A program made the position numbers and the translations under genes. Positions 18,301 through 50,114 of a stretch of DNA of 62,426 nucleotides are shown here, one piece after another. The notes beneath the pieces are model-generated. The model was given only the letters and a program-made list of their open reading frames with translations, did not search any database and was not told the origin of the DNA. Each line of letters begins with the position of its first letter. Positions within the stretch are counted from its first letter, which is position 1. Origin of the DNA: a virus (lineage: Duplodnaviria > Caudoviricetes); IMG/VR virus record IMGVR_UViG_3300005805_000090, positions 1-62,426 of that record; one strand, written 5' to 3'.

Positions 18301-20252
18301 TATTATCTAAGGAAGCTATAGCGGAAATCGCTGAATCTATTGGTGCTAAAAGGAAAATGACTACATTCTCTAAAGCAAGCATCCTTGATTCTGTTGCTTA
18401 TGCGACTAGCGAAAGAATGCTCAGAGACATTCCTAATTCTCATGTATACGCTGTAATAGAAACATCCTCAAAGGTAAAACCTGAATTCATAGGTAAGCAT
18501 GAGTCTTATCCATGGCATATAGTTACTGAAGATGGAAGCAAGCCTATTCTTTATATACTTAAAGACAGACCATTTTATAATGATGCGTTTGTAGCTGCTA
18601 AAAGCACTGAGAAAGTAAAAGAAGGGGAAAGGTTTGGTGACATTAGTCGAGCTGGATTGGCGCAAAGAGGTATGGGACTTGCTAAAGTGGATACCAAGAC
18701 GGCTGGCCAACCATCCATAGACATCAAGCGCACTGGTAAATATGAAGCACTGCCCGGTGCGCCAACGCTCAAAGATGCCACCGGTCCTATTCCCGAACTT
18801 GTTGACGTGGCTGAAAGTTATGCTAAGAAGTTTGGAGTACCATATACCCGTCAGGCTGAGTACGTGCAAGTAGACGAGGATTTTGCAAAGAGTATTGCCA
18901 AGGCTTACGAAGAGATGAAGCATAATCCCACTGATCCTAAGGTGAAGGAGGCTTATGATGATTTAATTCGTCAAACGACTGACCAATACAACGCCCTTAC
19001 GGAGGCTGGATATGAATTCACATTCTTTGACGGCGAGACTGATCCGTATAATGGAAATCCCGTAGATGCAATGCGTGACTTACGAGCCAATAAGAAAATG
19101 GCCGTATATGGAACATACGCTGGATACGGAACGGGAAGTGAACTCAATATTGGACTTGACGATCCATCGGGAGGTCCAAGGCTTAGCGTAGATGAGGTTT
19201 TGAAGGCCGTAAAGAAAGCCGGAGGAGAAGTAATCAGCAGTTCTGTTTACGCTTCAGACACGGAGCCTACGCTTGTTGTTAAACTCAAGACAAAACTTGA
19301 CGATAAGTCGGCAACTAAACTTTCAACGGATCTTGGCCAGGAATCTATTGCTCAAAGATTTGATGATGAAACAGGCAAAATTCATGGTCCACAGGCTGAA
19401 AAATGGGGAGAATTTGATCCCAAGTTTTTTATAACCTCAGACGGAAGAAGGGCGTCAGAAACTTCAAACCCAATGCTTGAGGACACGGGATTGCAGTGGC
19501 CTGATCAAAACGGCGAAATGCATAAGGTTACTGCCAATGATTTGTTCCGAGCAGTCTACGATGCGTTTGGTCACGGGTTGGAAGGTGCTGGCTTTAGAGC
19601 AAGAGGAGAGGAGAATGCATGGCAGGCTCATGCTCGATTGTTTACTGGACCAGCCGTGGCTGCGATTACAACTGAAACACGAGGTCAGAACAGTTGGTTG
19701 AATTACGGTCCTTATGGCGAACAAAACAGAAAGGCAAAGGTTCAAGACACCATCTTTGCAGAGCAGAAAACAGGGCTGATGCCTGAGTGGACTTGGACAG
19801 AGAATGTGGCGCCACCAATGGAGGAGTCTAAGGAAGGCGTTAAGGGGCAGCCATCAATGGTGAAGCGTACTCCAGCCCAGATCAGACAAGCCGTAGAAGA
19901 TGGGGTAGACGCAGTTGAGGAGGCAATTGCTGATGGCATGGATCCACAGCAGGCTGTTGACGAGAACATTTCAAATCAGGATTGGTATGGCGATTTGAGT
20001 GCCACTCAAAAAGAACAACTGAATGAAATTCTTCAGGACGAGTTTGGAGTTACGGCGAGTGAACCTAAACTACAGAACAATGCCCAGCGTGTAGCTGATC
20101 TTTGGGAAAAGGGTGGAAAAGAAGCTAAGGCGGAGATTAAGAACATTTTGGAGACTGACCCTGAACTTTCGTACATTTACAACAATTTCCCGAAGATAAC
20201 TAAGCAGTTACAGGAACAGGGATTGTTGACTAAAACAGAGAATTGTCCATGA
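12345..20252 (+). CDS. Giant polyvalent internal virion protein
   Basis: 2635 aa; coiled coils, hydrophobic Gly/Ala segment, zincin motif VFHEGIHP with downstream E, and an NDLFRAVYDAFGH...RGEENAW...ETRGQNSW domain. Confidence 0.7.
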   Translation: MPVSLTPEEKDKLLKGLTKYASEGANDDQLRKFRDAFISELKKKGGGQPVSGADVERPGKPSAPSFGQKVVNEAITEDIQVPLRGQQKPPVTKKPYQDIYYKPEALPSETTQTVETPVIKAAKQDFKQTQIKPIVKPPVTEQGIKELEQEIKQPDKTFLKFQDYQTSIDDLDELENLYDEDLSNFQFKLSRRPDLYAKYSGRTEQETIDFFNALNDPNELRRNEAQAQFDVERNALYENFVNDYKSLKSKHGKIASELDVMTDGLTDELVNEKNYKKFMAKREFALTPTGAETSFGEVVNIDEVDKVATEVVDNYGLPTDGDAWRLMKNKIKAKVFNEYMKPRVEEELKRTKPDLLAKRQQIFEEGFKVDDDIYAKTDAVLTTLQNEYEQEAKKEMDLINSEYEGRSKQLNQNYEQYNKEIERQQLLLNNMYKAGQIDQLGYESAFNKLEDDKKAYHAEYEKNFPNFDEYVKKSNEINSRYNRKFEIQKKILTDKAQAELEIAYKKYAETYQEDPKILEELNNAYKEAYDAVAKRDGEIIKMGASMSMNPVSSLYNSTMSAMGGVFKGWGGSIDNKSLELLGETMEQNFYMPAAKTEDFSDWTDLQNLSMITGQVAGSMGPSMIPTAAAAVGVAFATGGLGLPASATVVTSGLAGALAGWGAETIDTAGRAYLDVFERSGGDVARANEAAKRSVKSQYDIMWSYSFEALPFIGKALKFVPTQVGRIGVGAAVELGTEFTQEIRQGIAEENIVELERDPWTNFDEAINDERRRKQTLVSIGPVAIMGGAGQIGSKSIQQERRDAYIAQQQKSVLSTALPDQRRQYIQNMVFNRNGKFANTVIASLYASGKIDERESANLMLEIKRAEQIKEAGKSAGLSGSKLNIYGFYSARAEEAERNAGRFAADPILSKSYQDMAKQYRDAGVEFMNGGSPDLLTLTYADGSQAMMLPEDVNALFADPIALSLLNKNAISIEAYNEKGEGPKIIEELKGRAETYAKKNRYTQASEIASPMQTLRQNINQRIKELYAEQVELTEKQKRQEAERITQEETAAFEQKEKERQQEERGQRDIEIERLQQQRMAIGVNDIDAFFSDMKPLVATTVERLEQGKNAPQSAIKVASDYLYAKYKELTAMKSDPNRMMTIAQIESVQAQIEQDLQTLAGNPPSQKIQVNDQENIQGVSGEVGVGQEPVETQPIEVPSTEEAPAGGILQAQGQEEVVTPQVTEEPAPKPARKTRLAKMFGEEGEGETTVKISETAPAVRRVGAVEASEGSNEDAGIESALEGVGLDETKLEDWKRKNKAPSKKGRIEELTQAVRDLMSGKIKFKEYYEKAKQLIPSKSMEKVPTPASFEEVVGSIDKNKLKIGIINLNKFVKKGMNVGLRIDIPAFNNFGKNVVTVHDRTGSGQPVIGYGSTGSISNVKFRTSVSTAAKIGAGEQKSAFAMAEGQWMDESPESIQKRAEEALNSPEWVQVGMNPTRNSFFFDKADGNPVVAADEVLQVGNLVLAKNPQKIDLNTKEGMAQFEKQFSAKTKEGVTYQYRTSKPSPGERIGKIFETSDGEEAVPLIEQALSESGIKVEVKNDADYNNDDRIKLSQGSGSEGMFVADDGTIILNRDKIKGEWGKTIVFHEGIHPVINIIRNTDPKRYRAIVDGLKEEAARNTEVAKAAADIAASEEYQRRGPESIEDETIVETMARVATGDVDINTFKPSFREKFIEFMNDIAKVFGIRRIALNSQRMEVKRLADQINKMLNEGGKVSDVVGKKNVKEFQNKIILDDTNSVFSNTSSQARFEMRFLEDSEDFAKLIEEGRVVHNASLDDINGETVVIHNPDNFSTGDIKFRGKDLVKGEGGVYFVLLYNDVWASGKKSSASQLAALINESLQKSTDGKGRLVLVKGDASKNLTSVKGAKALMGVMEILADDGLIPLSAFRKALNIAGKKYGINFDGRNDAKSIHKDIQDKFMNVSNSSFERRGDFVRDVIDAIADQNVLSKEAIAEIAESIGAKRKMTTFSKASILDSVAYATSERMLRDIPNSHVYAVIETSSKVKPEFIGKHESYPWHIVTEDGSKPILYILKDRPFYNDAFVAAKSTEKVKEGERFGDISRAGLAQRGMGLAKVDTKTAGQPSIDIKRTGKYEALPGAPTLKDATGPIPELVDVAESYAKKFGVPYTRQAEYVQVDEDFAKSIAKAYEEMKHNPTDPKVKEAYDDLIRQTTDQYNALTEAGYEFTFFDGETDPYNGNPVDAMRDLRANKKMAVYGTYAGYGTGSELNIGLDDPSGGPRLSVDEVLKAVKKAGGEVISSSVYASDTEPTLVVKLKTKLDDKSATKLSTDLGQESIAQRFDDETGKIHGPQAEKWGEFDPKFFITSDGRRASETSNPMLEDTGLQWPDQNGEMHKVTANDLFRAVYDAFGHGLEGAGFRARGEENAWQAHARLFTGPAVAAITTETRGQNSWLNYGPYGEQNRKAKVQDTIFAEQKTGLMPEWTWTENVAPPMEESKEGVKGQPSMVKRTPAQIRQAVEDGVDAVEEAIADGMDPQQAVDENISNQDWYGDLSATQKEQLNEILQDEFGVTASEPKLQNNAQRVADLWEKGGKEAKAEIKNILETDPELSYIYNNFPKITKQLQEQGLLTKTENCP

Positions 20253-30891: not shown

Positions 30892-31204
30892 TGGGTAACT
30901 TGGGTATTCGTGAAACAATTTTCTGTGCGTTTGCTATGCGCTCCTGTTCGATTATGAACTGCTCTTGGTCTTGTACCATGAACGAGTCGAGGGCGGCCTT
31001 TGTTTGGGTTACGATGACGAGGTTGGAGTCCATCTGCGCGATGTACTTCTCGTTGATTTCATGCAGCCTCTCGATTGCTATGGCCTCGTTCTCTGAGCTG
31101 GTGTGAAGGATCCCCATCCGGAATACCATAAAGAATACCCCGAACAGGATGGCGACACAGAGTGCAAGGATGATTAAGGTGTATATGTTTTTTGTCTTGT
31201 CCAT
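30806..31204 (-). CDS. i-spanin-like protein (N-terminal TM plus coiled coil)
   Basis: N-terminal TM, periplasmic coiled coil; TAACTTTG promoter at 31211-31218. Confidence 0.55.
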   Translation of the reverse strand: MDKTKNIYTLIILALCVAILFGVFFMVFRMGILHTSSENEAIAIERLHEINEKYIAQMDSNLVIVTQTKAALDSFMVQDQEQFIIEQERIANAQKIVSRIPKLPNDSLKTLYVNSWNYLLNEYRSGRLRPAN

Positions 31205-31252
31205 GTTATTCAAAGTTAGCGTATCCTAAGTCTTGCCAGGTTGGTGGATCTA

Positions 31253-31792
31253 TCATTTTTTTAGTTCTTTTACTTTGTCCTTATAGTGGTATATCAACTC
31301 CTTTATCTTGTCAAGCGGTAGGCTGAGGCGGTCGTTTCTTAAATTCTTCAAGTCCTCCATTCTTTTTTTACCTATTCGCTTCTCAAGTCCAATAGCGTAT
31401 TCGAGAAGATTTCCGTGCTTGTGCTGGTTACAGGGGACACATTGTCCAAAAACGTTATCTTCGTTGAACCTAAGGTTAGGGTATGATCCCGTGGAAAAGT
31501 AGTGACCCGCGTCGTACTTACCTTGCAGAGGGCGGTTGCAGGATATACACCCCTTCCCTTGGTCTCGAAGCCTAATGTATTGGTTAAACACCTGCTGGAG
31601 TTCTTTCCTCCATTGGGACACGGACTTGTTCCGCTCCTTAATCTCTTTCAGTTCGCGTTTAACCTTCTTCTCCTTCTGCTTGGATGAATAGGCAATCATG
31701 CATTCGATGTTCTCACACGTTGCCTGCATGGTGCTGTACTTAGGGATAAACTCCTGTCTACAGATTCTGCACTTCTTATTCCTCCCCTTCAT
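31253..31792 (-). CDS. ninG: NinG/Rap-family recombination endonuclease
   Basis: N-terminal CxxC...C..C, QQVFNQYIRLRD, CISC, DAGHYFS, LRFNEDN..GQCVPCN. Confidence 0.9.
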   Translation of the reverse strand: MKGRNKKCRICRQEFIPKYSTMQATCENIECMIAYSSKQKEKKVKRELKEIKERNKSVSQWRKELQQVFNQYIRLRDQGKGCISCNRPLQGKYDAGHYFSTGSYPNLRFNEDNVFGQCVPCNQHKHGNLLEYAIGLEKRIGKKRMEDLKNLRNDRLSLPLDKIKELIYHYKDKVKELKK

Positions 31793-31800
31793 AGGCTATT

Positions 31801-32076
31801 TTATTTTTCGGAGGGTTTCCACTCTGCCTGTTCTTTAGCCAAGTTTGCCTTGACGGTTTCCGCGAGTATCGCAGCAAAGTAGTTGACTGCCTCGTCCTTG
31901 TCGATGTGTTGCATGAACTGTTCATAGTCTACCTCCACGGCAAAGGTAGTGACTCCGTTGGTGGTACGCAAGACTGTGAAGTTCCAACTTTTGTTTTCGG
32001 TTCCGGGGAAGGCCATGGTTATGGTTCCGGGGAAATACTCCACCCGCTTGGATGGCTTGTCTGAGATTCTGATCAT
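31801..32076 (-). CDS. Hypothetical protein
   Basis: 91-aa ORF, ATGA-coupled. Confidence 0.6.
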   Translation of the reverse strand: MIRISDKPSKRVEYFPGTITMAFPGTENKSWNFTVLRTTNGVTTFAVEVDYEQFMQHIDKDEAVNYFAAILAETVKANLAKEQAEWKPSEK

Positions 32077-32291
32077 AGCTTTATGTTATAGTTGTTAATA
32101 ATTTCGTAGAACTGTTGGTACACCTCGTCATACGCCTCCCATTTCTTCTCGTCATGGGTGTCGTACTTTACCTTTCCTCTGAGGTATTCTCGGATGCCGT
32201 CTAGGGCAATCCTCATGTCAAGGGCTTTGATGGCTAGGTCGAAGTCGGACTGGTCTTCCGGTAGATTGAATTCAAGTATTGCTTTACTCAT
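32073..32291 (-). CDS. Conserved small phage protein (KAILEFNLPED family)
   Basis: Recognisable N-terminal motif; start lies in a junction repeat. Confidence 0.7.
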   Translation of the reverse strand: MSKAILEFNLPEDQSDFDLAIKALDMRIALDGIREYLRGKVKYDTHDEKKWEAYDEVYQQFYEIINNYNIKL

Positions 32292-32533
32292 TTGTCACCT
32301 CCATTATTTTTTTCTTCCTCATCAAGCACCCACTTTAACAGATAAATTTTATGACCGCATTTAAGTAACTCGTGATATGCATAATCCATTTCACCACTAT
32401 CTGCCCCATCTTTCCCCCAAAAGCTACGATCATCCGCATACTGTTTAGAAGCCTTTTCATGCCAATTTTTAATATCATCGTATTCTGCTACAAGGTCAAC
32501 AAGTTTTGCTCGTATTTCATCTACAGTTTTCAT
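32288..32533 (-). CDS. Hypothetical cassette protein ending GGDK
   Basis: Bounded by junction repeats at both ends. Confidence 0.7.
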   Translation of the reverse strand: MKTVDEIRAKLVDLVAEYDDIKNWHEKASKQYADDRSFWGKDGADSGEMDYAYHELLKCGHKIYLLKWVLDEEEKNNGGDK

Positions 32534-32817
32534 TTGTCACCTCCTTTTGTTTCTTCCTTTTCCCTAGTCGCTAGCCCCGACTGCTCAACGGTTATCCCTT
32601 GGGATTTCCTGAGCTGCTTTGTCAACGTCTCGTGCCTCCTAGCCCTAAGGATTGCCCGTGCGTTCTTAATGACCTTGTTGGTCTCCGGGTCAATCACCTT
32701 GAAGTCCATGCTGTGAACGAGTCCGCAGTCGCAACAGGCCATCTTGTATCCCTTCTCAATAGGCATCTGCCATTCGTTTTTAGGAACCTGATAGAAGTCT
32801 ACTTTTTTGTTTTTCAT
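32530..32817 (-). CDS. Small Zn-binding protein (CCDCGLVH) ending GGDK
   Basis: Cys/His motif; junction repeats at both ends. Confidence 0.7.
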   Translation of the reverse strand: MKNKKVDFYQVPKNEWQMPIEKGYKMACCDCGLVHSMDFKVIDPETNKVIKNARAILRARRHETLTKQLRKSQGITVEQSGLATREKEETKGGDK

Positions 32818-33086
32818 TTGTAACCTCCTTCATTTTTTGTACTTAACGTCCATCTGTCATCTTGTGAAGTTGTTGTATTAAGCATCTCAAGCTGATCCAC
32901 AGAAGCAGTAAGGGTCACAGGCTTATGCTGGTCATCATGCGGGATGTGCTTGTTGTCTCTAATCCTTTCAAGATTACCCAATTGTTTTTTAAAGGCATCA
33001 AGTTCCGCATTTAGAATCATCTTTTCGTTTTGCAGGTTCTTGATATGCTCTTCACAGTCTTTAATTGCAAATTCTATCTTGTTCAT
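32814..33086 (-). CDS. Coiled-coil hypothetical protein ending GGYK
   Basis: ATGA-coupled ORF. Confidence 0.65.
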   Translation of the reverse strand: MNKIEFAIKDCEEHIKNLQNEKMILNAELDAFKKQLGNLERIRDNKHIPHDDQHKPVTLTASVDQLEMLNTTTSQDDRWTLSTKNEGGYK

Positions 33087-33709
33087 TGTTTAGGTTGTTT
33101 AAGTGATTGGATAATTTCTTCATCTGAATAAGTAACATATCTCATGTCTCTCACTTTGTGCATTGCCTCCCAAACTTGTTCCCCCGTGTAAAGAGTTTCT
33201 TTGGCTTTGTTGTAGCCTGCTGTGAATGCTTTTCTTATTAAAGAAGAATTTGGGTATAAATCATCATTTAATGGATAAAATTCCTCAGCTAACTTCTCTA
33301 CATCTTCTACCATCTTCCCGACATCAGGAACATGGTTAGCCATTTTGTTGACCTCACCAATATGGTCCATCATTTTGTTGGTGTCGCCAAGTTGATCAAT
33401 GACTTCATCCCATGCATCATAATTTTTAATCGGAGCTTGAATAATTGTAGGCTCATCTCGTTCATAAGTCATTTCAAAAATGTCAGGTTTACATGGGTAG
33501 TATTCACCCTTGATGCCCCTTATAATATAATCTCCTTTAGAACATTTATGACCTCCTTCTAAAGTTGGAACTATTAGATATGGTGAACCATCGTCTTCAT
33601 AACCAATAATAAATTTACCCACATCATTAATGCTGAAGATGTCAAGGCATCTGAAGTTTCCATCATACTGTACCGCTTCAATAACAACTGGTTTTTTTCT
33701 GTATCTCAT
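33083..33709 (-). CDS. YRKKPVVIEA/YPCKPDIF-family domain fused to a repeat-containing C-terminal part
   Basis: Widespread phage domain in residues 1-85, then three ~10-aa xxD/ExNKM repeats. Confidence 0.75.
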   Translation of the reverse strand: MRYRKKPVVIEAVQYDGNFRCLDIFSINDVGKFIIGYEDDGSPYLIVPTLEGGHKCSKGDYIIRGIKGEYYPCKPDIFEMTYERDEPTIIQAPIKNYDAWDEVIDQLGDTNKMMDHIGEVNKMANHVPDVGKMVEDVEKLAEEFYPLNDDLYPNSSLIRKAFTAGYNKAKETLYTGEQVWEAMHKVRDMRYVTYSDEEIIQSLKQPKQ

Positions 33710-33990
33710 AACTTTTGTATTTCCTGTTCTACTTGTTCTAAATACTCCAACATATCATACCCCGTCATGTGGTCTGGGTGTTCACCTTCAAAGGTAAATT
33801 TGCGTTCTCCAATGGCATCAAAGGCACAGTATTCAGGTTTGTGGAGTCCATCAAAGATGCCTTTCATGTGCTTTACTGCTATCAAAGCACCCTTCTTAGC
33901 ATTTTCCCATCTCATATTGTCACTTAGAAATGACATTATGGTACTGTAGTAGTCCTCTACTAATTCTTCTGCATATTGTTTTGGTGTCAT
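33706..33990 (-). CDS. Hypothetical protein (MTPK..A.EL...EQEIQKL family)
   Basis: ATGA-coupled at both ends. Confidence 0.7.
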   Translation of the reverse strand: MTPKQYAEELVEDYYSTIMSFLSDNMRWENAKKGALIAVKHMKGIFDGLHKPEYCAFDAIGERKFTFEGEHPDHMTGYDMLEYLEQVEQEIQKL

Positions 33991-34082
33991 AGCTTATCAG
34001 TTATATTATCAAGTGCTACTCCTATTCTAATGAGGGCATAAGTTATCATTGCCCCGACTACAAAAATTGTTATTGATGTCAT
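33987..34082 (-). CDS. 31-aa single-TM peptide (not in ORF track)
   Basis: MTSITIFVVGAMITYALIRIGVALDNITDKL*, ATGA overlaps at both ends. Confidence 0.7.
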   Translation of the reverse strand: MTSITIFVVGAMITYALIRIGVALDNITDKL

Positions 34083-34291
34083 TGTACTTCTTTTTTAATG
34101 TGTCTGAAAGTTGGGTATTCTTTAGGAATGTTAAAACCAAGTGCCATGTAAAAAGAAAAGTAACCCCAGCAAATTCCAATGCCGTAAACTTTGATAACTT
34201 CTCCTTTTGAAATAACACTACACAGATAGGGCGTTAAAGCAAAATCTTCATTATTGCTCCTTGTATCCATAGTTCCAAATAAAACTCTCAT
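34079..34291 (-). CDS. Hypothetical protein
   Basis: Starts in a junction repeat. Confidence 0.65.
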   Translation of the reverse strand: MRVLFGTMDTRSNNEDFALTPYLCSVISKGEVIKVYGIGICWGYFSFYMALGFNIPKEYPTFRHIKKEVQ

Positions 34292-34530
34292 TCGTCACCT
34301 CCTTTAATTACTCGGTTGATCCTATCCAACAAGTCCTGTAAGTTACCAACGCTATCTATACTCCAACCTGTTTCAGTTTTTAATACATAGTAGCACCCGC
34401 CATCATTGTCAATTCCAAGTGATGACTCACACTCTATTGTTAGTTCTTCGTACTCACTTGTTGTCCCATTACAATTACCCTCTTGAACAAATGTAAATGA
34501 ACACTTTTCTAATGTTGGTTTATCGCTCAT
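34288..34530 (-). CDS. Hypothetical protein ending GGDE
   Basis: Junction repeats at both ends. Confidence 0.7.
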   Translation of the reverse strand: MSDKPTLEKCSFTFVQEGNCNGTTSEYEELTIECESSLGIDNDGGCYYVLKTETGWSIDSVGNLQDLLDRINRVIKGGDE

Positions 34531-34748
34531 TTGTCACCTCCGTATGTTATTTTTTCAAATGCGCGTTCCACCTGTGCGTATTCCCTTTCAATAAATTCCA
34601 AATTATCAAAAGAAAAAACTTCCCTGTAATAACTTGGCGGTGGCGGTGGATAAGACATTAAATTAGAATTGTCCTGAACATAATAGACGTAAAGTTTTTT
34701 CTTTTCTTGGTCTATTTCTACTTTTTGAATTTGATTGTTGTTAAACAT
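34527..34748 (-). CDS. Hypothetical protein ending TYGGDK (start revised to MFNNNQ)
   Basis: GGAGGTAACAATG start at 34748. Confidence 0.65.
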   Translation of the reverse strand: MFNNNQIQKVEIDQEKKKLYVYYVQDNSNLMSYPPPPPSYYREVFSFDNLEFIEREYAQVERAFEKITYGGDK

Positions 34749-34998
34749 TGTTACCTCCATAATTTTCGTTATAATAAGTCTGTGAATCTTTCCTGTATTC
34801 TGAATTGACATGGTATTGATATTCCGATTCCGCGCCTTCCTCCCAGGATAACTCAATCTGCTGCTGTTCGATTCGCATATAAGTGTTCATAATCATCATT
34901 TCAACACCTTGATACGCTCTATCCCATTCAATAGGTAGTGGCAGATTGTTTCTTTCCTCTCTCATTTGTTCAAGGAGTTGTTGCATTGCTGTTTTCAT
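34741..34998 (-). CDS. MKTA...YYNE.YGG family paralog
   Basis: Shares N- and C-terminal motifs with three neighbours. Confidence 0.75.
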   Translation of the reverse strand: MKTAMQQLLEQMREERNNLPLPIEWDRAYQGVEMMIMNTYMRIEQQQIELSWEEGAESEYQYHVNSEYRKDSQTYYNENYGGNNV

Positions 34999-35177
34999 TT
35001 GCTACCTCCAGTATTTTGTGTTTTTTCAATCATGTAGTCAATGTCATCAATCGCATCTTGAAACATCGTCTTAAATTGCTCCAATTCATTTTTCCAAACA
35101 TCATAACAAATCGTAGTATCTCTATCCTCAATGGTTAATTCTAACCAAGAGCTTTTTATTTTTGTTGTAATTCTCAT
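34995..35177 (-). CDS. Hypothetical protein ending GGSK
   Basis: Junction repeats at both ends. Confidence 0.65.
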   Translation of the reverse strand: MRITTKIKSSWLELTIEDRDTTICYDVWKNELEQFKTMFQDAIDDIDYMIEKTQNTGGSK

Positions 35178-35419
35178 TCGTCACCTCCGTATTGCTCGTT
35201 ATAGTAATCATCAAAATCGTCATAGGCTCTTACCACATTCCACGCCCTCTCCTGAGTTTGGTCTATGGCTTTTGTCCAGGTTTTCATCATCTGCTCCTTC
35301 TCCACTTCAAGTAACTCCTCTGCTTTGTCTATGGCTTCATAGAAACTAAGTGTTTTTGCGGGGTGGTCACCAATCATTTGGGTTCCCCATTCTATAAATT
35401 GTTGTAGTGCTGTTTTCAT
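35174..35419 (-). CDS. MKTA...EKEQ...YYNEQYGGDE family paralog
   Basis: Shared motifs with neighbours. Confidence 0.75.
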   Translation of the reverse strand: MKTALQQFIEWGTQMIGDHPAKTLSFYEAIDKAEELLEVEKEQMMKTWTKAIDQTQERAWNVVRAYDDFDDYYNEQYGGDE

Positions 35420-35466
35420 TTGTCCCCTCCGTATGTTTCGTTTTACTTGTTTCGCTTATTCCTATG

Positions 35467-35673
35467 TTAGCGGTAATGCTTAACCATATTCTCATCGAGA
35501 TAATAAGTCGAGAAATTATCACTAACCCAACCACCCTTCCAAATAGTTGTGCTTGTCGTAGTTTCATCAGTTGATAAGCAACCAGTAGTAGCACTACCGC
35601 TAACACCAGATAAAAGCAATTTATTACTGCTAATATCTAACTTTTCTGCTTGTTTTTTAATCTTGTTTTTCAT
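35467..35673 (-). CDS. Small ORF running through an attC-like site
   Basis: Starts inside the attC-like loop; LLLSGVSGS is encoded by the L'/R' arm; ends HYR* in GCTAAC. Confidence 0.5.
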   Translation of the reverse strand: MKNKIKKQAEKLDISSNKLLLSGVSGSATTGCLSTDETTTSTTIWKGGWVSDNFSTYYLDENMVKHYR

Positions 35674-35716
35674 ATCTAATTTTATTTTAAACTGCTTTTA
35701 TCTGTAAACGTTATAC
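35598..35716 (-). mobile_element. Integron attC-like recombination site
   Basis: GTATAAC ... 17-bp imperfect inverted repeat (35607-35623 / 35688-35704) ... GTTAGCG. Confidence 0.55.
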
Positions 35717-35722
35717 GAAATG

Positions 35723-35959
35723 TTACTCGTCACCTCCGTATGTTTCGTTATACCATTTATCGAAATTGAAATACCCTCGATTATCAACCATATCTGCTTT
35801 TGATATGGCATTTGAAACCGCATTTTCAATCTGCTCCTTCTCCATTGCTTTAGCTTCCGCTAAACACTTTCTAAAATGCTCTCTTTCTTTTGGGTCAGAA
35901 AATGGAAGAAAAGGTAATAGGTGTGCAAATAACCATTCTGTTGCTGTTTGCTTTTTCAT
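35723..35959 (-). CDS. MKKQTA.EWL...AKAMEKEQ...YNETYGGDE family paralog
   Basis: Shared motifs with neighbours. Confidence 0.75.
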   Translation of the reverse strand: MKKQTATEWLFAHLLPFLPFSDPKEREHFRKCLAEAKAMEKEQIENAVSNAISKADMVDNRGYFNFDKWYNETYGGDE

Positions 35960-36096
35960 TTGTCACCTCCTTCAATAAATATTATGTAATGACAATTAGG
36001 ACATTCAAGTTCTAATGCTTCAATGGGTCTAACAGCTACCCAACTATAAGTACATATGTCGCAATCAACTAATGATGTTGTAAATGATTCAGTCAT
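35956..36096 (-). CDS. 46-aa zinc-ribbon protein (not in ORF track)
   Basis: MTESFTTSLVDCDICTYSWVAVRPIEALELECPNCHYIIFIEGGDK*, junction repeats at both ends. Confidence 0.75.
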   Translation of the reverse strand: MTESFTTSLVDCDICTYSWVAVRPIEALELECPNCHYIIFIEGGDK

Positions 36097-36314
36097 TCGT
36101 CACCTCCGTATGTTTTATTAAAATAATCTTCAAACAAATCTCCATGACCCGTTTCTAAATAGGTTAATGTAGCATGGTCATAACACTTTTCCATCTGCTC
36201 CTTCTCCATTGCTTTGGCTTGGTCAAATAATTGACTTCTATTTCTTTCAGTCATATATTGATATAAAAAATCTAATTCGCTTTCTAACCACTCTACTGCC
36301 GTCTGCCTTTTCAT
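36093..36314 (-). CDS. MKRQTAVEWL...AKAMEKEQ...TYGGDE family paralog
   Basis: Shared motifs with neighbours. Confidence 0.75.
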   Translation of the reverse strand: MKRQTAVEWLESELDFLYQYMTERNRSQLFDQAKAMEKEQMEKCYDHATLTYLETGHGDLFEDYFNKTYGGDE

Positions 36315-36688
36315 ATCGCGTCCTCCAATATTGGTTTAAGGTTTGGCTTTTCGTATCCCTCCGGCTTGAGGATCTTCCCATCGTCCCGTCTGAAAACCCT
36401 TCCGTCCACAACCTTGGTCATGTTGCTGCGGTGTATCTCATCGAAGATAGCCTCTATCTTATCCGCAAGGCCATGTTCTACAATGGTCCCAATGAGGATG
36501 TAGAGCATATCCCCTAGCGCGTCGGCTATGTCAACCATCTCCCACGCCTGCAAATACTCGTCATTCTCTTCGGCCATCAGGTCATAGCGAAGTATGTGTC
36601 GTGTTTGACCAAGCCCGGTAGGAATTGTTGGGCTTTCGATTTCCGTGGCTCTGTGCCACTCTTTTAGTTGTTCGATTTGTTGTTTCAT
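36311..36688 (-). CDS. MazG-like / PRA-PH family NTP pyrophosphohydrolase
   Basis: EENDEY, DALGDMLY, EIHRSNMTK, RRDDGKILKP motifs. Confidence 0.9.
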   Translation of the reverse strand: MKQQIEQLKEWHRATEIESPTIPTGLGQTRHILRYDLMAEENDEYLQAWEMVDIADALGDMLYILIGTIVEHGLADKIEAIFDEIHRSNMTKVVDGRVFRRDDGKILKPEGYEKPNLKPILEDAI

Positions 36689-36692
36689 TTTA

Positions 36693-36764
36693 CAAAGATA
36701 ACTTATGTGTTGTTTTTATGCAATTATTTCTTTTGACTTCCGTGTTTCGGTCGCCATACTTTTG
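36693..36764. promoter_or_regulatory. Divergent Bacteroidota-type promoters
   Basis: - strand TATCTTTG (about 36693-36700); + strand TTTG(36732)-N21-TACTTTTG(36757-36764). Confidence 0.7.
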
Positions 36765-36769
36765 TTGCG

Positions 36770-36869
36770 TTCTCACATTGCAGTGTCTGGTAGCAGTGCA
36801 ATGTGGGAATTGAGAAATCTAATTCTCATGCCAAAATGCCCTCGGACTACCAGACGAGGGCTTTTTTTT
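36770..36869 (+). ncRNA. Three-hairpin sRNA with complementary loops
   Basis: Promoter upstream; 13-bp hairpin with loop GTCTGGTAG; terminator with CTACCAGAC in its loop and T8. Confidence 0.6.
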
Positions 36870-37067
36870 ACCCCACCCCACCATCCGAATCAGCCCTGTC
36901 GGTGCAAGAGGCAAACTTCATACGCGAGTATGTTGGATCAGGCAGCCGCCCCTTTGTGGGGCGGGGTAGTTTGTTTTTCATGGGGGGAGGCTTTTTCTTT
37001 TCTTCTCTTTAGGTTTCTTCTTGACTTGTTTCTTTTCTCTGTCTTTTCTTTTGAATGAGTCCAAGTT

Positions 37068-37502
37068 TTAACCTATCTCAAGTTGCTCATTTGGGTCGGG
37101 AATGTAGATATCAAGCGTCTCAGCGGCAAACTGCTTGACTTGTTCGATATAAACTATAAACTCGTCCGTTGCAAGCTCCGACGTTTTGCGTGGTATCTTC
37201 ATTACCTCGCCGGACGTTGGGTCGGTCAGCTCTGTGTAGAGGAACCTCCCCTTGAGGAACTCATGCGTTAGGTCGCGGTCAACATCATGGCCAAGCTCCC
37301 TGAGCCTTTCCACTATCATCGCCACAACTACGCCCCAGTAGTATGCATTCTGCACATCGGAGCGTACACGTTTCTTCATCTTGACTTCGATGGTCACGGC
37401 CAAGTCCTTGTCGCGGGACATGGCTCGGACTTCCTCTTCGAAGAGGGGGCGATTGTAGATTCGCAATGCCCCCTGTGGTGTAATTACTCCGTTGTGTTTC
37501 AT
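37068..37502 (-). CDS. NinB/YbcN-like recombination protein
   Basis: RS..QNAYYWG, HEFLK, TSEL...EF..YIEQV motifs. Confidence 0.8.
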   Translation of the reverse strand: MKHNGVITPQGALRIYNRPLFEEEVRAMSRDKDLAVTIEVKMKKRVRSDVQNAYYWGVVVAMIVERLRELGHDVDRDLTHEFLKGRFLYTELTDPTSGEVMKIPRKTSELATDEFIVYIEQVKQFAAETLDIYIPDPNEQLEIG

Positions 37503-37735
37503 TTTATCCTCCAAATTCTGAAGCCATCAGGATATGTGCGTGACTTAAACTTCTTGCCGTTGTTCTTTCCGTAGTATAAGGATGAGGATAGGACAGTCGA
37601 TCGCTTGCTTGTCATTGTTTCTTCATCGCACTTGATAAAGAATGAGTCTCCAACCTCCATTTCATGGAATGGATATTTGCTTTTAGTCTCCCGCGTTGAC
37701 TCCAATGGGATGTTCTTTTGGATGGTGATTTTCAT
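37499..37735 (-). CDS. Small DNA-binding-type protein (KYPF.EMEVGDSF family)
   Basis: Recognisable phage motif, ends GFRIWRIK. Confidence 0.7.
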   Translation of the reverse strand: MKITIQKNIPLESTRETKSKYPFHEMEVGDSFFIKCDEETMTSKRSTVLSSSLYYGKNNGKKFKSRTYPDGFRIWRIK

Positions 37736-38043: not shown

Positions 38044-38360
38044 GTTGTTGGGGTATTAAAATGATTGTTTGTTACTAAGTATTCGTATAGGCCGTCGAGA
38101 TCCTTGCATATCTCGTTCTTGTGTTCGTCCCATGCCTTCATGTCGTCCCTTAACTCGTGTAGGTAAGACCTTTCGTACATGAACCAACAGAACCACTCCA
38201 TTCCCTTTTCAGTTAGCACAGCCTCCCATAGGTGCGTGGTCACATAGTATTGGGTGTCCATGAACTCGTTGAGGTCGATGCCCATCTTGTATGCCTTGTC
38301 GCACTTCTCGGACATCTCCTTCATCTTGATACAGGCTCTTGTGAATGCTAAATGTTTCAT
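38040..38360 (-). CDS. Hypothetical protein (EKGMEWFCWFMYE family)
   Basis: ATGA-coupled ORF. Confidence 0.65.
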   Translation of the reverse strand: MKHLAFTRACIKMKEMSEKCDKAYKMGIDLNEFMDTQYYVTTHLWEAVLTEKGMEWFCWFMYERSYLHELRDDMKAWDEHKNEICKDLDGLYEYLVTNNHFNTPTT

Positions 38361-39352
38361 GCTTCCTCCTCCTCTTCGGTTACACCAAACTTCTTGGCCT
38401 GTTCTACGATTTGATTGAAGTTGTATCCAGCAGCCTCAATCTCTGCACGAACCTCCTCATTCTTCTTGGTGATGTTATCACCCTTGGCATATCGGGAAAC
38501 TACTCGACTCCACTTGGCAACTTGTGACTTCACTGAGTCGGAGTAGTCGCGTGGCTCGTCAAAGTCGTACAGGAACTTGAGGTAGTTTGAATACTCGATG
38601 CCAAAGTTTTTCTTGAACTTGCCGTCCTCGACTACGATTAGTTTCTCAAGCGGTGGGCGGGTGCTTGCTGAGTAGTAGTGGCTGATTGCCGCAAGGTCAG
38701 CGAGGTATTCCTGTTCGAGGTCAGCGGTAGGCTCATACTGAAAGCACATCATTCGGAGGTCATCCTTGCAGATGTATACTAACTCTCCGTTCAGGCCGAG
38801 TCCTTTCATGTAGTGGAAGAGCTGAAGTCTGTGATGCTTGATGGGTTTCTCGGTCTTTTCCATCATGTCCATAACGAATGACGAGCAAGACTTAATCTCT
38901 AGCACTTTCTTCTCTAGTTCCTTGTCACCGAACTTCTCATATAATTTCTCCGCTATGTAAAGGGAGGATGCTTGGATGGATTCGGGAAGGTGAGACGAGG
39001 TGATGTCTTGCTTGGCACGCTCGATGTCGATGCGACCTCCGGCTAAGAAGTCCAATCGACCCGACACCTTGAGCATATTCGGGTACTCGACCATAACACG
39101 TTCTTGTGTATTGTTGATGAGGCCGGCACGTTCAAGGACGTAGCGAACCACCCACTCGACAAGGTTGCCCGCCTCGAACTTGCGGAGGCTTCTCATGTTG
39201 GGTGGGTTGGTAGGTTTGACCGCCTTCATCTTGAGGTATCGGTCAACAAGGGGCTGACCGATTTCTGATGCATAGCAGTAGTCGCGTGGCTCAAGCTCAC
39301 GCTGTTGGGAATAAACGCATTCATTCCATAGTTGTTGGAGATTCCAATTCAT
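38357..39352 (-). CDS. PD-(D/E)xK Cas4-like exonuclease
   Basis: YASEIG, SGRLDFL, LEIKS, QLFHYM motifs. Confidence 0.8.
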   Translation of the reverse strand: MNWNLQQLWNECVYSQQRELEPRDYCYASEIGQPLVDRYLKMKAVKPTNPPNMRSLRKFEAGNLVEWVVRYVLERAGLINNTQERVMVEYPNMLKVSGRLDFLAGGRIDIERAKQDITSSHLPESIQASSLYIAEKLYEKFGDKELEKKVLEIKSCSSFVMDMMEKTEKPIKHHRLQLFHYMKGLGLNGELVYICKDDLRMMCFQYEPTADLEQEYLADLAAISHYYSASTRPPLEKLIVVEDGKFKKNFGIEYSNYLKFLYDFDEPRDYSDSVKSQVAKWSRVVSRYAKGDNITKKNEEVRAEIEAAGYNFNQIVEQAKKFGVTEEEEEA

Positions 39353-43258: not shown

Positions 43259-43426
43259 TTAATTGTTTGAATGGTGTCCGTATACTTTATAGAAGCACTC
43301 TTCGCAGTCAGCGTCCGTGCCTTCAGTCTGCTGTACACATTCGTACAGCAGGACTTCCTTGTCGAGGGAAGAGCCAACCCACAGCCCCGCTGTGAGTATA
43401 GCTATAAAGATGATTGCTTTTTTCAT
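43259..43426 (-). CDS. 55-aa membrane/secreted Cys-containing protein (not in ORF track)
   Basis: MKKAIIFIAILTAGLWVG...CEECFYK; ATGA-coupled. Confidence 0.6.
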   Translation of the reverse strand: MKKAIIFIAILTAGLWVGSSLDKEVLLYECVQQTEGTDADCEECFYKVYGHHSNN

Positions 43427-43964
43427 TGTTCTCCGTATTTAGATTTCAATGTGTAGTAGTCGTATGCGTTCTCCGTGTACATATCGCATAACGTTTCCTC
43501 TTCGAGGTAGAATCGCTCGACCTCTTGTCCGTAATAGATTCGCATCACGAAGTCGTGAAGCGAAGGGAAGATGATGGCCTCGCCGTCCTTGATATAGACG
43601 TGTATAGCGTTGCCGTTGTTGTCGTGGCGAACCTCGTATAACTCGTCCGCTTTTTGAAGATGCTCGTTGTGTATCATATTGATTAGTTGTTATTGATTAA
43701 TATTTTGCTTTCGTTTGTGCATTCATACCATTGGCCGTCGTGCTTCTCATACCACTCGCCCTCGTCTTCATAGTCCCACTCAGTATAGCAGTAGGCGTCG
43801 TCGTCGTATGCCTCGTCGAGGTCGGCATAGCCAATCTCGATAGCGTAGCGTTCAGCGTCCTCCTCGTCAATGAAGTACATGAGGCTCTCTTCGAATAGGT
43901 ATCCCTCATTCATACCCTCGTTTGTGGCGGAGCATATCCGCGCAAATCTTTCTGTTGTTTCCAT
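43423..43964 (-). CDS. Two acidic early proteins (43423-43677, 43683-43964)
   Basis: High D/E/Y content. Confidence 0.65.
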
Positions 43965-50026: not shown

Positions 50027-50040
50027 TTCGTTTGTTTTAG

Positions 50041-50114
50041 TAGCCAGGACACGATTCGAACGTGTATCTCTTAACCTTGTGGGCGCAGCGCGTCTACCAT
50101 TCCGCCACCTGACT
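50041..50114 (-). tRNA. tRNA-like element lacking a paired anticodon arm
   Basis: Acceptor AGTCAGG/CCTGGCT, D arm GGCGGAATGGTAGACGC, T arm ACACG-TTCGAAT-CGTGT. Confidence 0.6.

Follow-up and report, generated by a model that had tools for sequence, protein, structure and literature searches.

A reiterated stop/start junction in a variable small-gene array of a freshwater tailed phage: a candidate linker for cassette shuffling

Unrelated small genes in the phage DNA analyzed here (the window, a whole record of 62,426 bp) are chained by a short repeated junction at which one gene ends and the next begins. The junction is conserved as a nucleotide sequence and is spread over unrelated genes; it lies in a region whose gene content varies among relatives, and the ends of homology between relatives cluster at its copies. 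The reading that we favor, and consider fairly probable, is that the junction is a conserved linker through which cassettes are shuffled, conceptually akin to the PeSLs of T4 and the nin region of lambda. With similar, moderate confidence we regard the region as the nin-like, hypervariable accessory part of a genome that otherwise lacks Shine-Dalgarno sequences (SDs), that of a freshwater tailed phage.

The gene array and its junction motif

The first-pass annotation described about 18 small ORFs in a chain, and we counted 18 (a01 to a18) between the MazG-like and NinG genes (Table 1). The GC content of the array is 0.382 versus 0.435 for the remaining genome. The stop codon of one gene usually overlaps the start codon of the next, as in a nin-type chain: 15 of the 19 junctions have the 4-nt overlap ATGA, and one more has an 8-nt overlap. 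The MazG-like gene sits between the array and a NinB-like gene, whose match is itself weak (E = 0.0065); it carries GGAGGACGCGATATGA within its final codons, and the GGAGG at the MazG/a01 junction is spaced differently. The NinG leader has no SD. The Cas4-domain exonuclease is a candidate part of the phage recombination module.

Searches of Pfam (E ≤ 0.01) and PHROG (E ≤ 0.001) returned nothing for 16 of the 18 array proteins (a11 lay outside the scan), which leaves the suggested anti-defense role of these genes unsupported. The a12 and a13 proteins match PHROG families of unknown function, a13 having a PHROG-419-type N-terminal domain; a02 and a14 have only sub-threshold Pfam matches.

Table 1. 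Features of the array and its surroundings
Feature	Coordinates	Strand	Remarks
Cas4-domain (PD-(D/E)XK) exonuclease	38357..39352	−	phrog_1990, 7.2e-10; phrog_1706, 4e-12
NinB-like ORF	37068..37514	−	PF05772, E = 0.0065; weak, under Pfam's cutoff; protein identity to backbone relatives, 92-94%
MazG-like nucleotide pyrophosphohydrolase	36311..36688	−	Upstream anchor; PF01503, E = 1.9e-11; phrog_671, 4.9e-30
Array of 18 small ORFs	31801..36314	−	a01, 36093-36314, to a18, 31801-32076
Motif copy a01/a02, GGAGGTGACGAATGA	36093..36107	−	Extended tail ACATACGG…
Motif copy a02/a03	35956..35970	−	Exact match
Tail-only copy at a03 end, GGAGGTGACGAGTAA	35723..35737	−	Stop without start
a04, 68-aa ORF	35467..35673	−	Own A-rich leader without SD
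Orphan tail copy, AACGAAACATACGGAGGGGACAAATGA	35416..35442	−	Supplies a05 start
Motif copy a05/a06	35174..35188	−	
Motif copy a06/a07, GGAGGTAGCAAATGA	34995..35009	−	2 mismatches
Variant junction a07/a08, GGAGGTAACAATGTTTAA	34741..34758	−	One base shorter; a08 ATG at 34748
Motif copy a08/a09	34527..34541	−	Family-type tail TYGGDK on a family-unrelated protein
Motif copy a09/a10	34288..34302	−	
Block a10-a13	33083..34291	−	ATGA overlaps without motif
Motif copy a14/a15, GGAGGTTACAAATGA	32814..32828	−	
Motif copy a15/a16	32530..32544	−	
Motif copy a16/a17	32288..32302	−	
NinG (Rap-like)	31253..31792	−	Downstream anchor; PF05766, E = 9e-46

The junction motif is the 15-mer GGAGGTGAC(A/G)AATGA, which is present in 11 copies at ≤2 mismatches, all on the minus strand and all between the MazG-like and NinG genes. 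Searching with GGAGGTGACRAATGA at ≤2 mismatches gave 11 matches, from 32288 to 36107, versus 0.26 expected (100 shuffles, maximum 2); the motif thus exceeds the genome-wide background and is confined to the array. At ≤1 mismatch the whole record has 9 reverse and 0 forward matches, and the backwards control had 0 of either. The twelve motif junctions claimed earlier are these 11 copies plus a variant shorter by 1 nt (34746, a07/a08), which reads GGAGGTAACAATG and has the 8-nt overlap ATGTTTAA. Unrelated proteins do share the C termini GGD(K/E), GGYK, or GGSK in the array, as had been noticed, and the ending GGNNV occurs too.

In general one motif supplies the upstream C terminus, a GGAGG, the stop, and the next start, as proposed, but this fails at the tail-only copy at the end of a03, which reads GAGTAA, gives no start, and is followed by a 49-nt gap. 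Two direct copies of a protein family's 3′ tail (see below) flank a04, which looks like an inserted cassette; the "scar" of a duplication seen in the first-pass annotation is this a04 segment between its two tail copies. The orphan copy is a true orphan, lying in no ORF, and still gives a05 its start: eight codons ahead of its TGA the frame is closed by a TAA, so that the copy is the tail of no ORF.

Nucleotide-level conservation of the junction

A widespread family of small viral proteins, MKKQTAVEWL…YYNETYGGD(K/E), is the origin of the extended motif, which forms the 3′ tail of its genes; of 285 pattern matches in IMG/VR, 187 were confirmed as relatives by tblastn. Within the array the extended motif takes the form AACGAAACATACGGAGG because four genes, a01, a03, a05, and a07, are paralogs. 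Among 67 nonredundant tails, GGA was present in 67, GGT in 65, and ATGA in 67. The tail codons of 68 family genes were TAC in 126/136 cases, AAC in 77/84, and GAC in 47/50, versus 98/252, 50/215, and 65/303, respectively, in the bodies of the same genes. In the ∼15 nt that precede the SD, synonymous sites are fixed in the direction opposite to the genes' own codon bias. The tail is conserved as nucleotides, not as a peptide, and the objection that conservation might be at the peptide level only fails on these counts.

The codon counts also contradict the idea that the motif is a peptide-selected C terminus (…YGGDK) of one tandemly duplicated family, although the four array paralogs do have that tail and a family member precedes 69 of the 109 nonredundant motif junctions found across 56 loci. 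The proteins upstream of these junctions fall into 28 clusters and those downstream into 46; the short form of the motif ends 27 clusters beyond the family, and in the window 8 non-family proteins have motif-bearing tails. The glycine codons show no synonymous change, the Y, N, and D codons run against the gene bias, and the orphan copy encodes no tail at all. We judge this explanation to be very improbable.

Spacing is conserved as well. GGAGG lies exactly 6 nt from the ATG in 114 of the 154 GGAGG-bearing junctions, whereas SDs and spacers are diverse in ordinary SD-using loci (L048 and L049). The GGAGG core has decayed in the relatives L013, L012, L011, and L010 (to GGAAG, GAAGG, GGAGT, and GGGGG), and therefore the constraint on it is not absolute; TGACAAATGA is retained in relatives while the core decays.

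Gene content and breakpoints among relatives

Backbone relatives are 88 to 94% identical in NinB, 84 to 98% in NinG, and 73 to 86% in MazG. From MazG to NinG, gene content and order are different in every nonredundant backbone relative, and so are not fixed. One gene is found behind differing upstream tails, and one tail before differing genes: downstream of the a14 tail lies a15 in this phage, a09 in L013, and a different gene in L011, and the a16 tail precedes a17 in this phage and an a05 homolog in L054. Both HSPs in L013 overlap by the 15-nt motif. In L011, the last ∼10 codons of MazG are swapped for a GG-type tail that is found on another gene in L056.

Homology ended ≤8 nt from a motif copy in 19 of 45 cases, an excess (binomial P = 2e-9) given that such windows make up 8.8% of the region; these ends are nonindependent events, and BLAST ends are fuzzy. 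There were 1.46 ends per motif junction versus 0.50 per non-motif junction (19/23 versus 13/21 expected, P = 0.03). Another 22 of the 45 ends lay inside genes and 4 at non-motif junctions (a13/a14 and a17/a18), and therefore the motif is neither necessary nor the sole breakpoint. Thus, the expectation that breakpoints fall at the motif is borne out for part of the ends, and the broader proposal of a recombination handle, which the variable cassettes and clustered ends favor, is tempered by the remainder.

Selection for intact genes would likewise concentrate surviving breakpoints at gene borders. It is conceivable that selection is all there is: the junction would be a strong RBS in a stop/start overlap, and recombination would be illegitimate and random. 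The copies would then be alike because there is a single best solution (GGAGGTGA, ∼6 nt, ATGA), and recombinants with breakpoints away from gene borders would not survive. The intragenic ends and those at non-motif borders are in keeping with this account, which the SD data (below) bear on further.

Assembled contigs give additional joints. In those of another study's run (X5), a14/a05′/a09 are joined at motif copies and the a05 tail is joined to a12; a contig of X2 diverges exactly at 35415. The X5 joints that "go back" fit a circle or a relative's different gene order alike, these being assembled contigs. No junction-to-junction deletions or circles were found in the source study's three runs (X1 to X3), which were searched as contigs only, a form from which rare variants are dropped. 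Shuffling had been proposed to proceed without an integrase, and none is among the 7 Pfam families identified (E ≤ 1e-4) in the 36 backbone ORFs scanned, out of ∼107 crude ORF calls; nor was a single-strand annealing protein recognized in those 36.

In the model that we favor, the linker has as its core a 7- to 10-bp complement of the 16S rRNA 3′ tail (GGAGGTG), a fixed 6-nt spacing, and ATGA as both stop and start. Its longer form (∼30 nt) is the family's 3′ tail, …YYNETYGGDK, and would have passed from there onto the ends of unrelated small genes. There is no intergenic space because the array genes overlap, and therefore a shared linker is the place where recombination leaves both genes intact. 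Such recombination could occur between two phages or between two positions of one array; it would be driven by homology, perhaps through the phage exonuclease and NinB/NinG-type functions, and single-gene cassettes would be exchanged, inserted, deleted, and reordered without a site-specific recombinase. The copies flanking a04 would be the expected remnant of a single-crossover insertion in the tail.

SDs, the likely host, and related systems

Of 986 non-motif starts in 90 related loci, 40 have a strong SD, versus 39 in mock windows, as do 3 of 88 such starts in this genome; neither is a signal above background. Because ribosomes of Bacteroidia (PMC7797042) and of Bacteroidota (PMC9976891) are reported to be SD-blind, the SD-free genome and the 90 loci fit a Bacteroidota host, which we consider probable. 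At the junctions, a complement of the 16S tail is present in the interval of 5 to 9 nt from the start, with a spacing of 6 nt. GGAGGTG pairs with …CACCUCC… of the 16S tail, a perfect complement in 6 of 6 Flavobacteriaceae-family genomes, and the predicted SD-ASD ΔG values are −9.3 to −16.7 kcal/mol at 10 junctions and −13.6 to −16.7 kcal/mol at 8. Among the other stop/start overlaps in the genome, 22 of 24 are without a strong SD, so this phage needs none for chained genes. Together with the SD-blindness reported for the likely host group, this weakens the claim of the first-pass annotation that the junction is a translational coupler. The linker may also set the translation of the downstream gene, but we regard such a role as uncertain.

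Of 91 copies of the exact 15-mer, 19 lie in unrelated SD-rich phage contigs, where it is an ordinary strong RBS; this, with the perfect match to the 16S tail, speaks for selection alone. That explanation is at odds with the SD-free background, with the many overlaps here that do without a strong SD, and with the upstream ∼15 nt that are synonymously fixed against codon bias. Nor does it sit well with a TGACAAATGA that outlasts the GGAGG core or with a spacing more fixed than that of SD-using loci. We consider it rather unlikely.

The lambda nin region is said to have been described by Kroeger and Hobom in 1982 as a "chain of interlinked genes," and a model of "short conserved boundary sequences" was reportedly put forward by Clark et al. 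in 2001. In lambdoid phages the chain consists of small genes lying from ninB (orf) to ninG (rap), each stop codon overlapping the following start. We know of no single reiterated 15- to 30-nt sequence at the lambda nin junctions. Lambda's host uses SDs throughout, whereas the present phage group does not. Like a lambdoid nin region, the array lies beside NinG and a (weakly matched) NinB-like gene, has ATGA chains, and is mosaic in content, and for both, relaxed phage recombination acting on short flanking sequences held in common is the proposed route of exchange. The orf and rap genes of the nin region, and exchange through short conserved flanking sequences, are described in PMC2327257.

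The PeSLs of T4-type phages (Arbiol et al. 2010, PMC2839356; Comeau et al. 2014, PMC4122927) (promoter-early stem-loops) are, as reported there, short conserved regulatory repeats between small, mostly ORFan, nonessential genes of a hyperplastic region, with indel or replacement ends of close relatives at the repeats and no site-specific recombinase. The present repeat is similar in these respects: it is reiterated (12 copies in 4.3 kb; 109 junctions in 56 loci), and both the homology ends and the X5 joints fall at its copies. PeSLs are reported to be intergenic and transcriptional, combining a stem-loop terminator with a sigma-70 promoter of the early class, whereas here an SD/stop/start lies inside a coding overlap, so the upstream protein's last four residues are written by the repeat. 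A PeSL unit proper can be rejected: the motif is in overlapping ORFs, and promoter-like or terminator-like matches in 30 to 40 kb did not coincide with motif copies. Mini-circles are reported for PeSLs, whereas this array is known from genomes and assembled contigs.

The array also resembles integron cassettes in having promoterless single-gene units in one orientation with a recurring boundary, which are gained, lost, and reordered. Integron cassettes end in attC-type imperfect inverted repeats, whereas the unit of 15 nt that recurs here is a direct repeat and is itself coding (the repeat search at the junctions covered direct repeats only). An integron array would also have a tyrosine-recombinase integrase beside it, and no integrase family was among those identified in the 36 ORFs described above.

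An extended SD of rpsU, read by bS21-less ribosomes, is reported in the Flavobacteriales (PMC9976891; PMC13000453; PMC13000457). In the F. johnsoniae work, rpsU was described as the sole gene with an obvious SD, and bS21-less ribosomes gave better translation of strong-SD reporters (PMC9976891); rpsU-type SDs had ΔG values of < −13 kcal/mol over 9 to 13 bp (PMC13000457). The junction likewise has a strong complement to the 16S 3′ tail amid a background that lacks or avoids SDs, but rpsU is reported to be a single autoregulated cellular gene, whereas here 7 to 10 bp are repeated a dozenfold at stop/start overlaps. Possibly, then, the junction SDs are read only by ribosomes with a free anti-SD (those lacking bS21), or displace bS21, and the array is conditionally translated; its conservation would reflect regulatory use, which is compatible with a linker in recombination too. 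The ΔG values at 8 junctions are within the rpsU-type range, although they come from a different program than the F. johnsoniae values, and the GGAGGT nucleotides are kept in 65 to 67 of the 67 tails. However, the pairing falls short of the 13 bp that rpsU reaches, the GGAGG core decays in some relatives, no bS21 gene is present in the 36 scanned backbone ORFs, and the host is one that we infer. We assign this explanation a low probability.

Both functions could reside in one sequence: in phages of SD-blind Bacteroidia, a reiterated SD junction of the rpsU class might act as a homology handle by which single-gene cassettes are shuffled and as a switch making translation of the entire accessory array depend on ribosomes with a free anti-SD, either bS21-less or with bS21 stripped off by the SD itself. 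We hold this combination to be improbable. If it is true, the dual-use junction would be an undescribed phage-borne exploitation of specialized ribosomes.

The junction-linked array

The window, an entire IMG/VR virus record of 62,426 bp with an estimated completeness of 95%, holds 18 counted ORFs (a01 to a18; 31 to 208 aa) between a MazG-like gene and NinG, and all genes in this stretch are on the minus strand. The 19 junctions comprise 15 ATGA overlaps, one 8-nt overlap, and three short gaps. The first-pass annotation had described an array chained by a repeated Shine-Dalgarno (SD)/stop/start junction, and this description was confirmed with small corrections. At ≤2 mismatches, the motif GGAGGTGACRAATGA gave 11 matches versus 0.26 expected, all on the minus strand within 32288-36107; a twelfth copy, at the a07-a08 junction, is shorter by one base. 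At 35723 the copy reads GAGTAA and no longer contains a start. Because of an in-frame TAA 8 codons upstream, the copy at 35416-35442 lies outside any ORF, yet it supplies the start of a05. Proteins upstream of the motif end in GGDK, GGDE, GGYK, GGSK, or GGNNV. The repeated junction is real and statistically solid.

Features of the window discussed in the text
Feature	Position	Strand	Evidence or remark
MazG-like pyrophosphohydrolase	36311-36688	-	PF01503, E=1.9e-11
NinG	31253-31792	-	PF05766, E=9e-46
Cas4-domain exonuclease, 331 aa	38357-39352	-	phrog_1990, phrog_1706; 1.7 kb upstream of array
GCAATGGAGAAGGAGCAG block, first site	36193-36232		
GCAATGGAGAAGGAGCAG block, second site	35820-35857		
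GCAATGGAGAAGGAGCAG block, third site	35285-35304		

The G+C content is 0.382 in the array versus 0.435 elsewhere. A search for known RNA families with Rfam at the gathering threshold found tRNA alone; the sole tRNA (50040-50114, minus strand) is a tRNA-Cys, confirmed as a tRNA by Rfam, for which ARAGORN gives the anticodon aca versus the usual gca. The structural half of the genome includes one ORF of 2,635 aa (12345-20252, plus strand). Between the NinB-like gene and MazG is a gene-poor spacer (36689-37067) with terminator-like hairpins on the plus strand; in relatives this spacer reaches about 1.5 kb, and the longest ORF over MazG, taken from the first ATG/GTG/TTG after a stop, is 148 aa versus the 125 aa used here.

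By a sequencing-run look-up, metagenomes of lake water contain DNA almost identical to the window, and freshwater metagenomes of other studies contain parts of it; the runs listed included none of RNA. A distant blastn search with 31000-37500 recovered no relative among GenBank phages, the sole match being a 75- to 113-nt piece of a13 (33083-33709). This piece (33454-33567), from the N-terminal domain of a13 (phrog_419 and relatives), has 74 to 82% DNA identity to hypothetical genes of Enterococcus, Clostridium, Streptococcus, Klebsiella, and Acinetobacter phages and of Flavobacterium phage 11b; conservation at the DNA level across such distant phages is unusual.

With a11 outside the scan and a08 scanned with one additional N-terminal codon, 16 of the 18 array proteins had neither a Pfam match (E≤0.01) nor a PHROG match (E≤0.001). 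The PHROG matches of a12 and a13 were to unknown-function families only, and a02 and a14 had Pfam matches below threshold. These searches gave no supporting evidence for the anti-defence role that had been suggested for the array.

Proposed exchange of genes at the linker

Seven loci have a common backbone (amino acid identity of 88 to 94% for the NinB-like protein, 84 to 98% for NinG, and 73 to 86% for MazG), and five of them are non-redundant. The junction had been proposed to act as a recombination handle, and the comparative data support that idea. Aligned from NinG to MazG, the relatives have 4 to 7 ORFs in the interval, and gene content and order are not fixed; both the selection and the order differ in each non-redundant relative. 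Behind the a14 tail, the window has a15, the related locus L013 has a09, and L011 has another gene; behind the a09 tail, the window has a10 and L013 has a gene of 76 aa; behind the a16 tail, the window has a17 and L054 has an a05 homologue. The 76-aa gene stands behind three different tails in L009, L011, and L013. Two genes match over their whole length, from motif to motif: a09 (34541..34288) and, in L054, a05 (35420..35174; 92% over 247 nt). In L013 the high-scoring segment pairs (HSPs) of a14 and a09 share the 15-nt motif as their overlap. The last ~10 codons of MazG in L011 are replaced by a GG-type tail, and the same tail is found on another gene in L056.

The ends of homology were taken from HSPs of ≥60 nt after dropping three duplicate loci: L014 and L018 are the same as L013, and L055 is the same as L054. 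A motif copy lay within 8 nt of 19 of the 45 ends, although such positions make up 8.8% of the region (P=2e-9), whereas 4 of the 45 fell at non-motif borders (3.5% of the region; P=0.07); here ends are non-independent events, and BLAST ends are fuzzy. Counted per junction, there were 1.46 ends at motif junctions versus 0.50 at non-motif junctions (P=0.03). The other 22 ends were elsewhere, many of them at the edges of conserved blocks of the small-protein family described below.

Assembled contigs from sequencing runs gave further joints. In a run from a different study, X5, contigs run in the order a14, a05-like, a09; the joints are at 35424->32823 and 34541, and there is a further one at 34299. 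The a05 tail is also joined straight to a12 in these contigs (33984->35174). One contig of the source-study run X2 diverges exactly at 35415. Several other listed joints were not counted because their sides, of just 20 to 26 nt, are the motif itself. Among the assembled contigs of the source-study runs (X1 to X3), a search for deletions or circles found no joints.

The most likely mode of action is a crossover at the shared linker. Overlapping stops and starts leave no spacer in which a random joint would keep both genes whole, and the shared linker of 15 to 33 nt could provide two genomes with a crossover site that preserves both genes. Insertion by a single crossover would leave the insert flanked by two direct linker copies; a04 is so flanked, which is the expected state. 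We infer that such exchange would be driven by homology. Candidate recombination functions beside the array are the Cas4-domain exonuclease, a NinB-like ORF (a weak match), and NinG; no annealing protein was recognized among the 36 ORFs scanned. Relaxed phage recombinases are reported to use homology that is short or diverged (PMC2327257). A Chi-like hot spot was considered and rejected for five genomes of the Flavobacteriaceae family: GGTGACAAATGA was absent (0), and GGAGGTGA occurred 40 to 158 times per genome (both strands summed) versus 38 to 101 for the backwards control, about the random expectation for an 8-mer.

Source, conservation, and spread of the linker

Four array proteins, a01, a03, a05, and a07, are paralogues in a viral small-protein family with the consensus MKKQTAVEWL…AKAMEKEQI…YYNETYGGDK, and the 3' tail of the family is the extended motif AACGAAACATACGGAGGTGAC(A/G)AATGA. 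In IMG/VR, 285 stretches match a degenerate peptide pattern for the family, and 187 were confirmed by tblastn. The family is rare in the cellular genomes searched (three loci in genome_contigs; 2 of 401 sampled genomes, in the phylum of genome G001), so it is mostly not prophage-borne there. Its AlphaFold model has four helices (pLDDT of 87.2, confident) and no structural match at E≤0.001 in PDB or BFVD; the ESM Atlas gave viral "hypothetical protein" clusters alone. Outside the array, the junction before the ORF at 43259-43426 (43423-43445, minus strand) reads aatacggagaacaATGA, which resembles the family tail in decayed form.

Conservation of the tail is not confined to the peptide. Codon choice is unbiased by retrieval because the loci were fetched with degenerate patterns. 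Across 67 non-redundant tails, the glycines are encoded by GGA (67/67) and GGT (65/67), and each of the 67 closes with ATGA. Codons ending in C are used in the tail for 126/136 Y, 77/84 N, and 47/50 D residues, versus 98/252, 50/215, and 65/303, respectively, in the bodies of the same 68 genes. Since the tail codons run against the body bias, ~30 nt are held at the nucleotide level, a length greater than an SD alone needs. A second nucleotide-fixed block of the family, GCAATGGAGAAGGAGCAG (AMEKEQ), has GAG and AAG codons contrary to the gene bias. The edges of this block are also sites where homology to relatives and to contigs ends, which suggests half-gene exchange inside the gene.

The motif is not restricted to the family. 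The fetched loci contain 727 non-redundant ATGA junctions, of which 109, from 56 loci, carry the 15-mer at ≤2 mismatches. The proteins upstream of these 109 junctions group into 28 clusters, the family making up 69 of the 109, and those downstream group into 46. Two proteins, of 67 aa (L054, 10243-10446) and 119 aa (L060, 2084-2443), clustered apart from the family yet have the full …NETYGGD(E) or …NETYGGNK tail and the 24-nt extended motif; by their sequences they are candidate tail transfers. Of the 154 junctions with GGAGG, 114 have it exactly 6 nt from ATG, and GGAGG is absent from 566 junctions; in two SD-using loci, SDs and spacers varied as usual.

A scan of IMG/VR for the exact 15-mer gave at least 118 stretches. 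Among the matches listed, there were 91 copies in 79 loci, with 19 copies in SD-rich and 41 in SD-poor contigs; family tails, also among the matches listed, numbered 1 in SD-rich versus 19 in SD-poor contigs. In SD-rich contigs the exact 15-mer is simply a good ribosome-binding site. Recent import of the motif from SD-using phages is unlikely and was rejected, as 90 of 90 family-carrying loci are SD-poor.

An SD-type linker in an SD-less lineage

Elsewhere in the genome, leaders are A-rich and without SD sequences (107 ORFs from our own crude caller). Pairing was predicted with the 16S 3' tail …GGAACACCTCCTTTCT, which is the same in six of six genomes from the family of a Flavobacteriaceae metagenome-assembled genome. 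Predicted pairing was ≤-9.3 kcal/mol at 10 of the 18 array starts, 8 of these being ≤-13.6, versus ≤-9.9 at 3 of 88 other starts, for which the median of -1.6 was weaker than that of mock windows (-3.1). Just 2 of 24 stop/start overlaps outside the array have a strong SD; therefore, the phage chains genes without SDs. Across the 90 family-bearing loci, strong SDs occurred at 40 of 986 non-motif starts versus 39 mock windows; thus, the motif is the sole SD-like signal of the whole group.

The host appears to belong to the Bacteroidota. Pointing to this phylum are the absence of SDs, a BT4734-like N-terminal domain among the phage ORFs, an excess of TATATTTG (13 occurrences versus 3.07 expected), which we take to be a form of the TAnnTTTG promoter element of Bacteroidota, and the titles of cellular contigs carrying the family, which name Flavobacteriaceae, Flavipsychrobacter, one odd case of Pirellulales, and no others. 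Verrucomicrobiales are likewise reported to be without SD sequences (PMC10798248).

Judged by its sequence, the linker would act as a very strong SD wherever a ribosome has its anti-SD free. Ribosomes of Bacteroidia are reported not to recognize SDs, because the 16S tail is held by bS21, bS18, and bS6 (PMC7797042). In Flavobacterium johnsoniae, an obvious SD is said to be on rpsU alone, and ribosomes without bS21 are reported to read strong-SD messages better (PMC9976891); at rpsU, a 13-bp helix is described as displacing bS21 (PMC13000457), and the prfB frameshift site is stated to have an SD that normally goes unused (PMC10798248). On one reading, the GGAGG core does little in the host and persists as part of the linker; on the other, the array is tied to ribosomes whose anti-SD is free. 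An idle core fits the decay of GGAGG in several relatives to GGAAG, GAAGG, GGAGT, and GGGGG with TGACAAATGA retained; a tie to free anti-SD ribosomes fits the invariance of GGAGG in 65 to 67 of the 67 family tails. Instant expression of captured genes by translational coupling is plausible as a putative function and awkward with the likely host.

The feature is conserved-linker-mediated modular shuffling, and its unexpected property is that the linker is of the SD type although the phage lineage is SD-less. The same concept is found in the PeSL of T4-type phages, described as a reiterated regulatory cassette between ORFan genes, with modules shuffled there (PMC2839356, PMC4122927), but the promoter and terminator that define PeSL are absent from the array motif. 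In position and architecture the array resembles a nin region, with NinG, a weakly matching NinB-like gene, and ATGA chains. Unlike integrons, the phage has no integrase among the ORFs scanned. In the open-access literature, we found no description of a reiterated SD/stop/start linker or of SD-bearing gene arrays in Bacteroidota phages.

It is debated whether phages gain and lose small ORFan accessory genes by random illegitimate joining plus selection or by recombination between short sequences held in common. In this array such a sequence stands out with unusual clarity and can be counted across hundreds of environmental contigs. It occupies gene borders of zero length, at which two intact genes would hardly ever be expected from random joining; thus, the question becomes directly testable. 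The near-perfect SD linker contrasts with a phage lineage, and probably a host phylum, otherwise without SDs. At rpsU, the one known cellular case, an SD of this kind is read by bS21-lacking ribosomes alone. A translational function of the linker would tie the accessory genes of the phage to the heterogeneity of ribosomes; without such a function, the linker would exemplify a sequence kept by recombination and not by apparent function.
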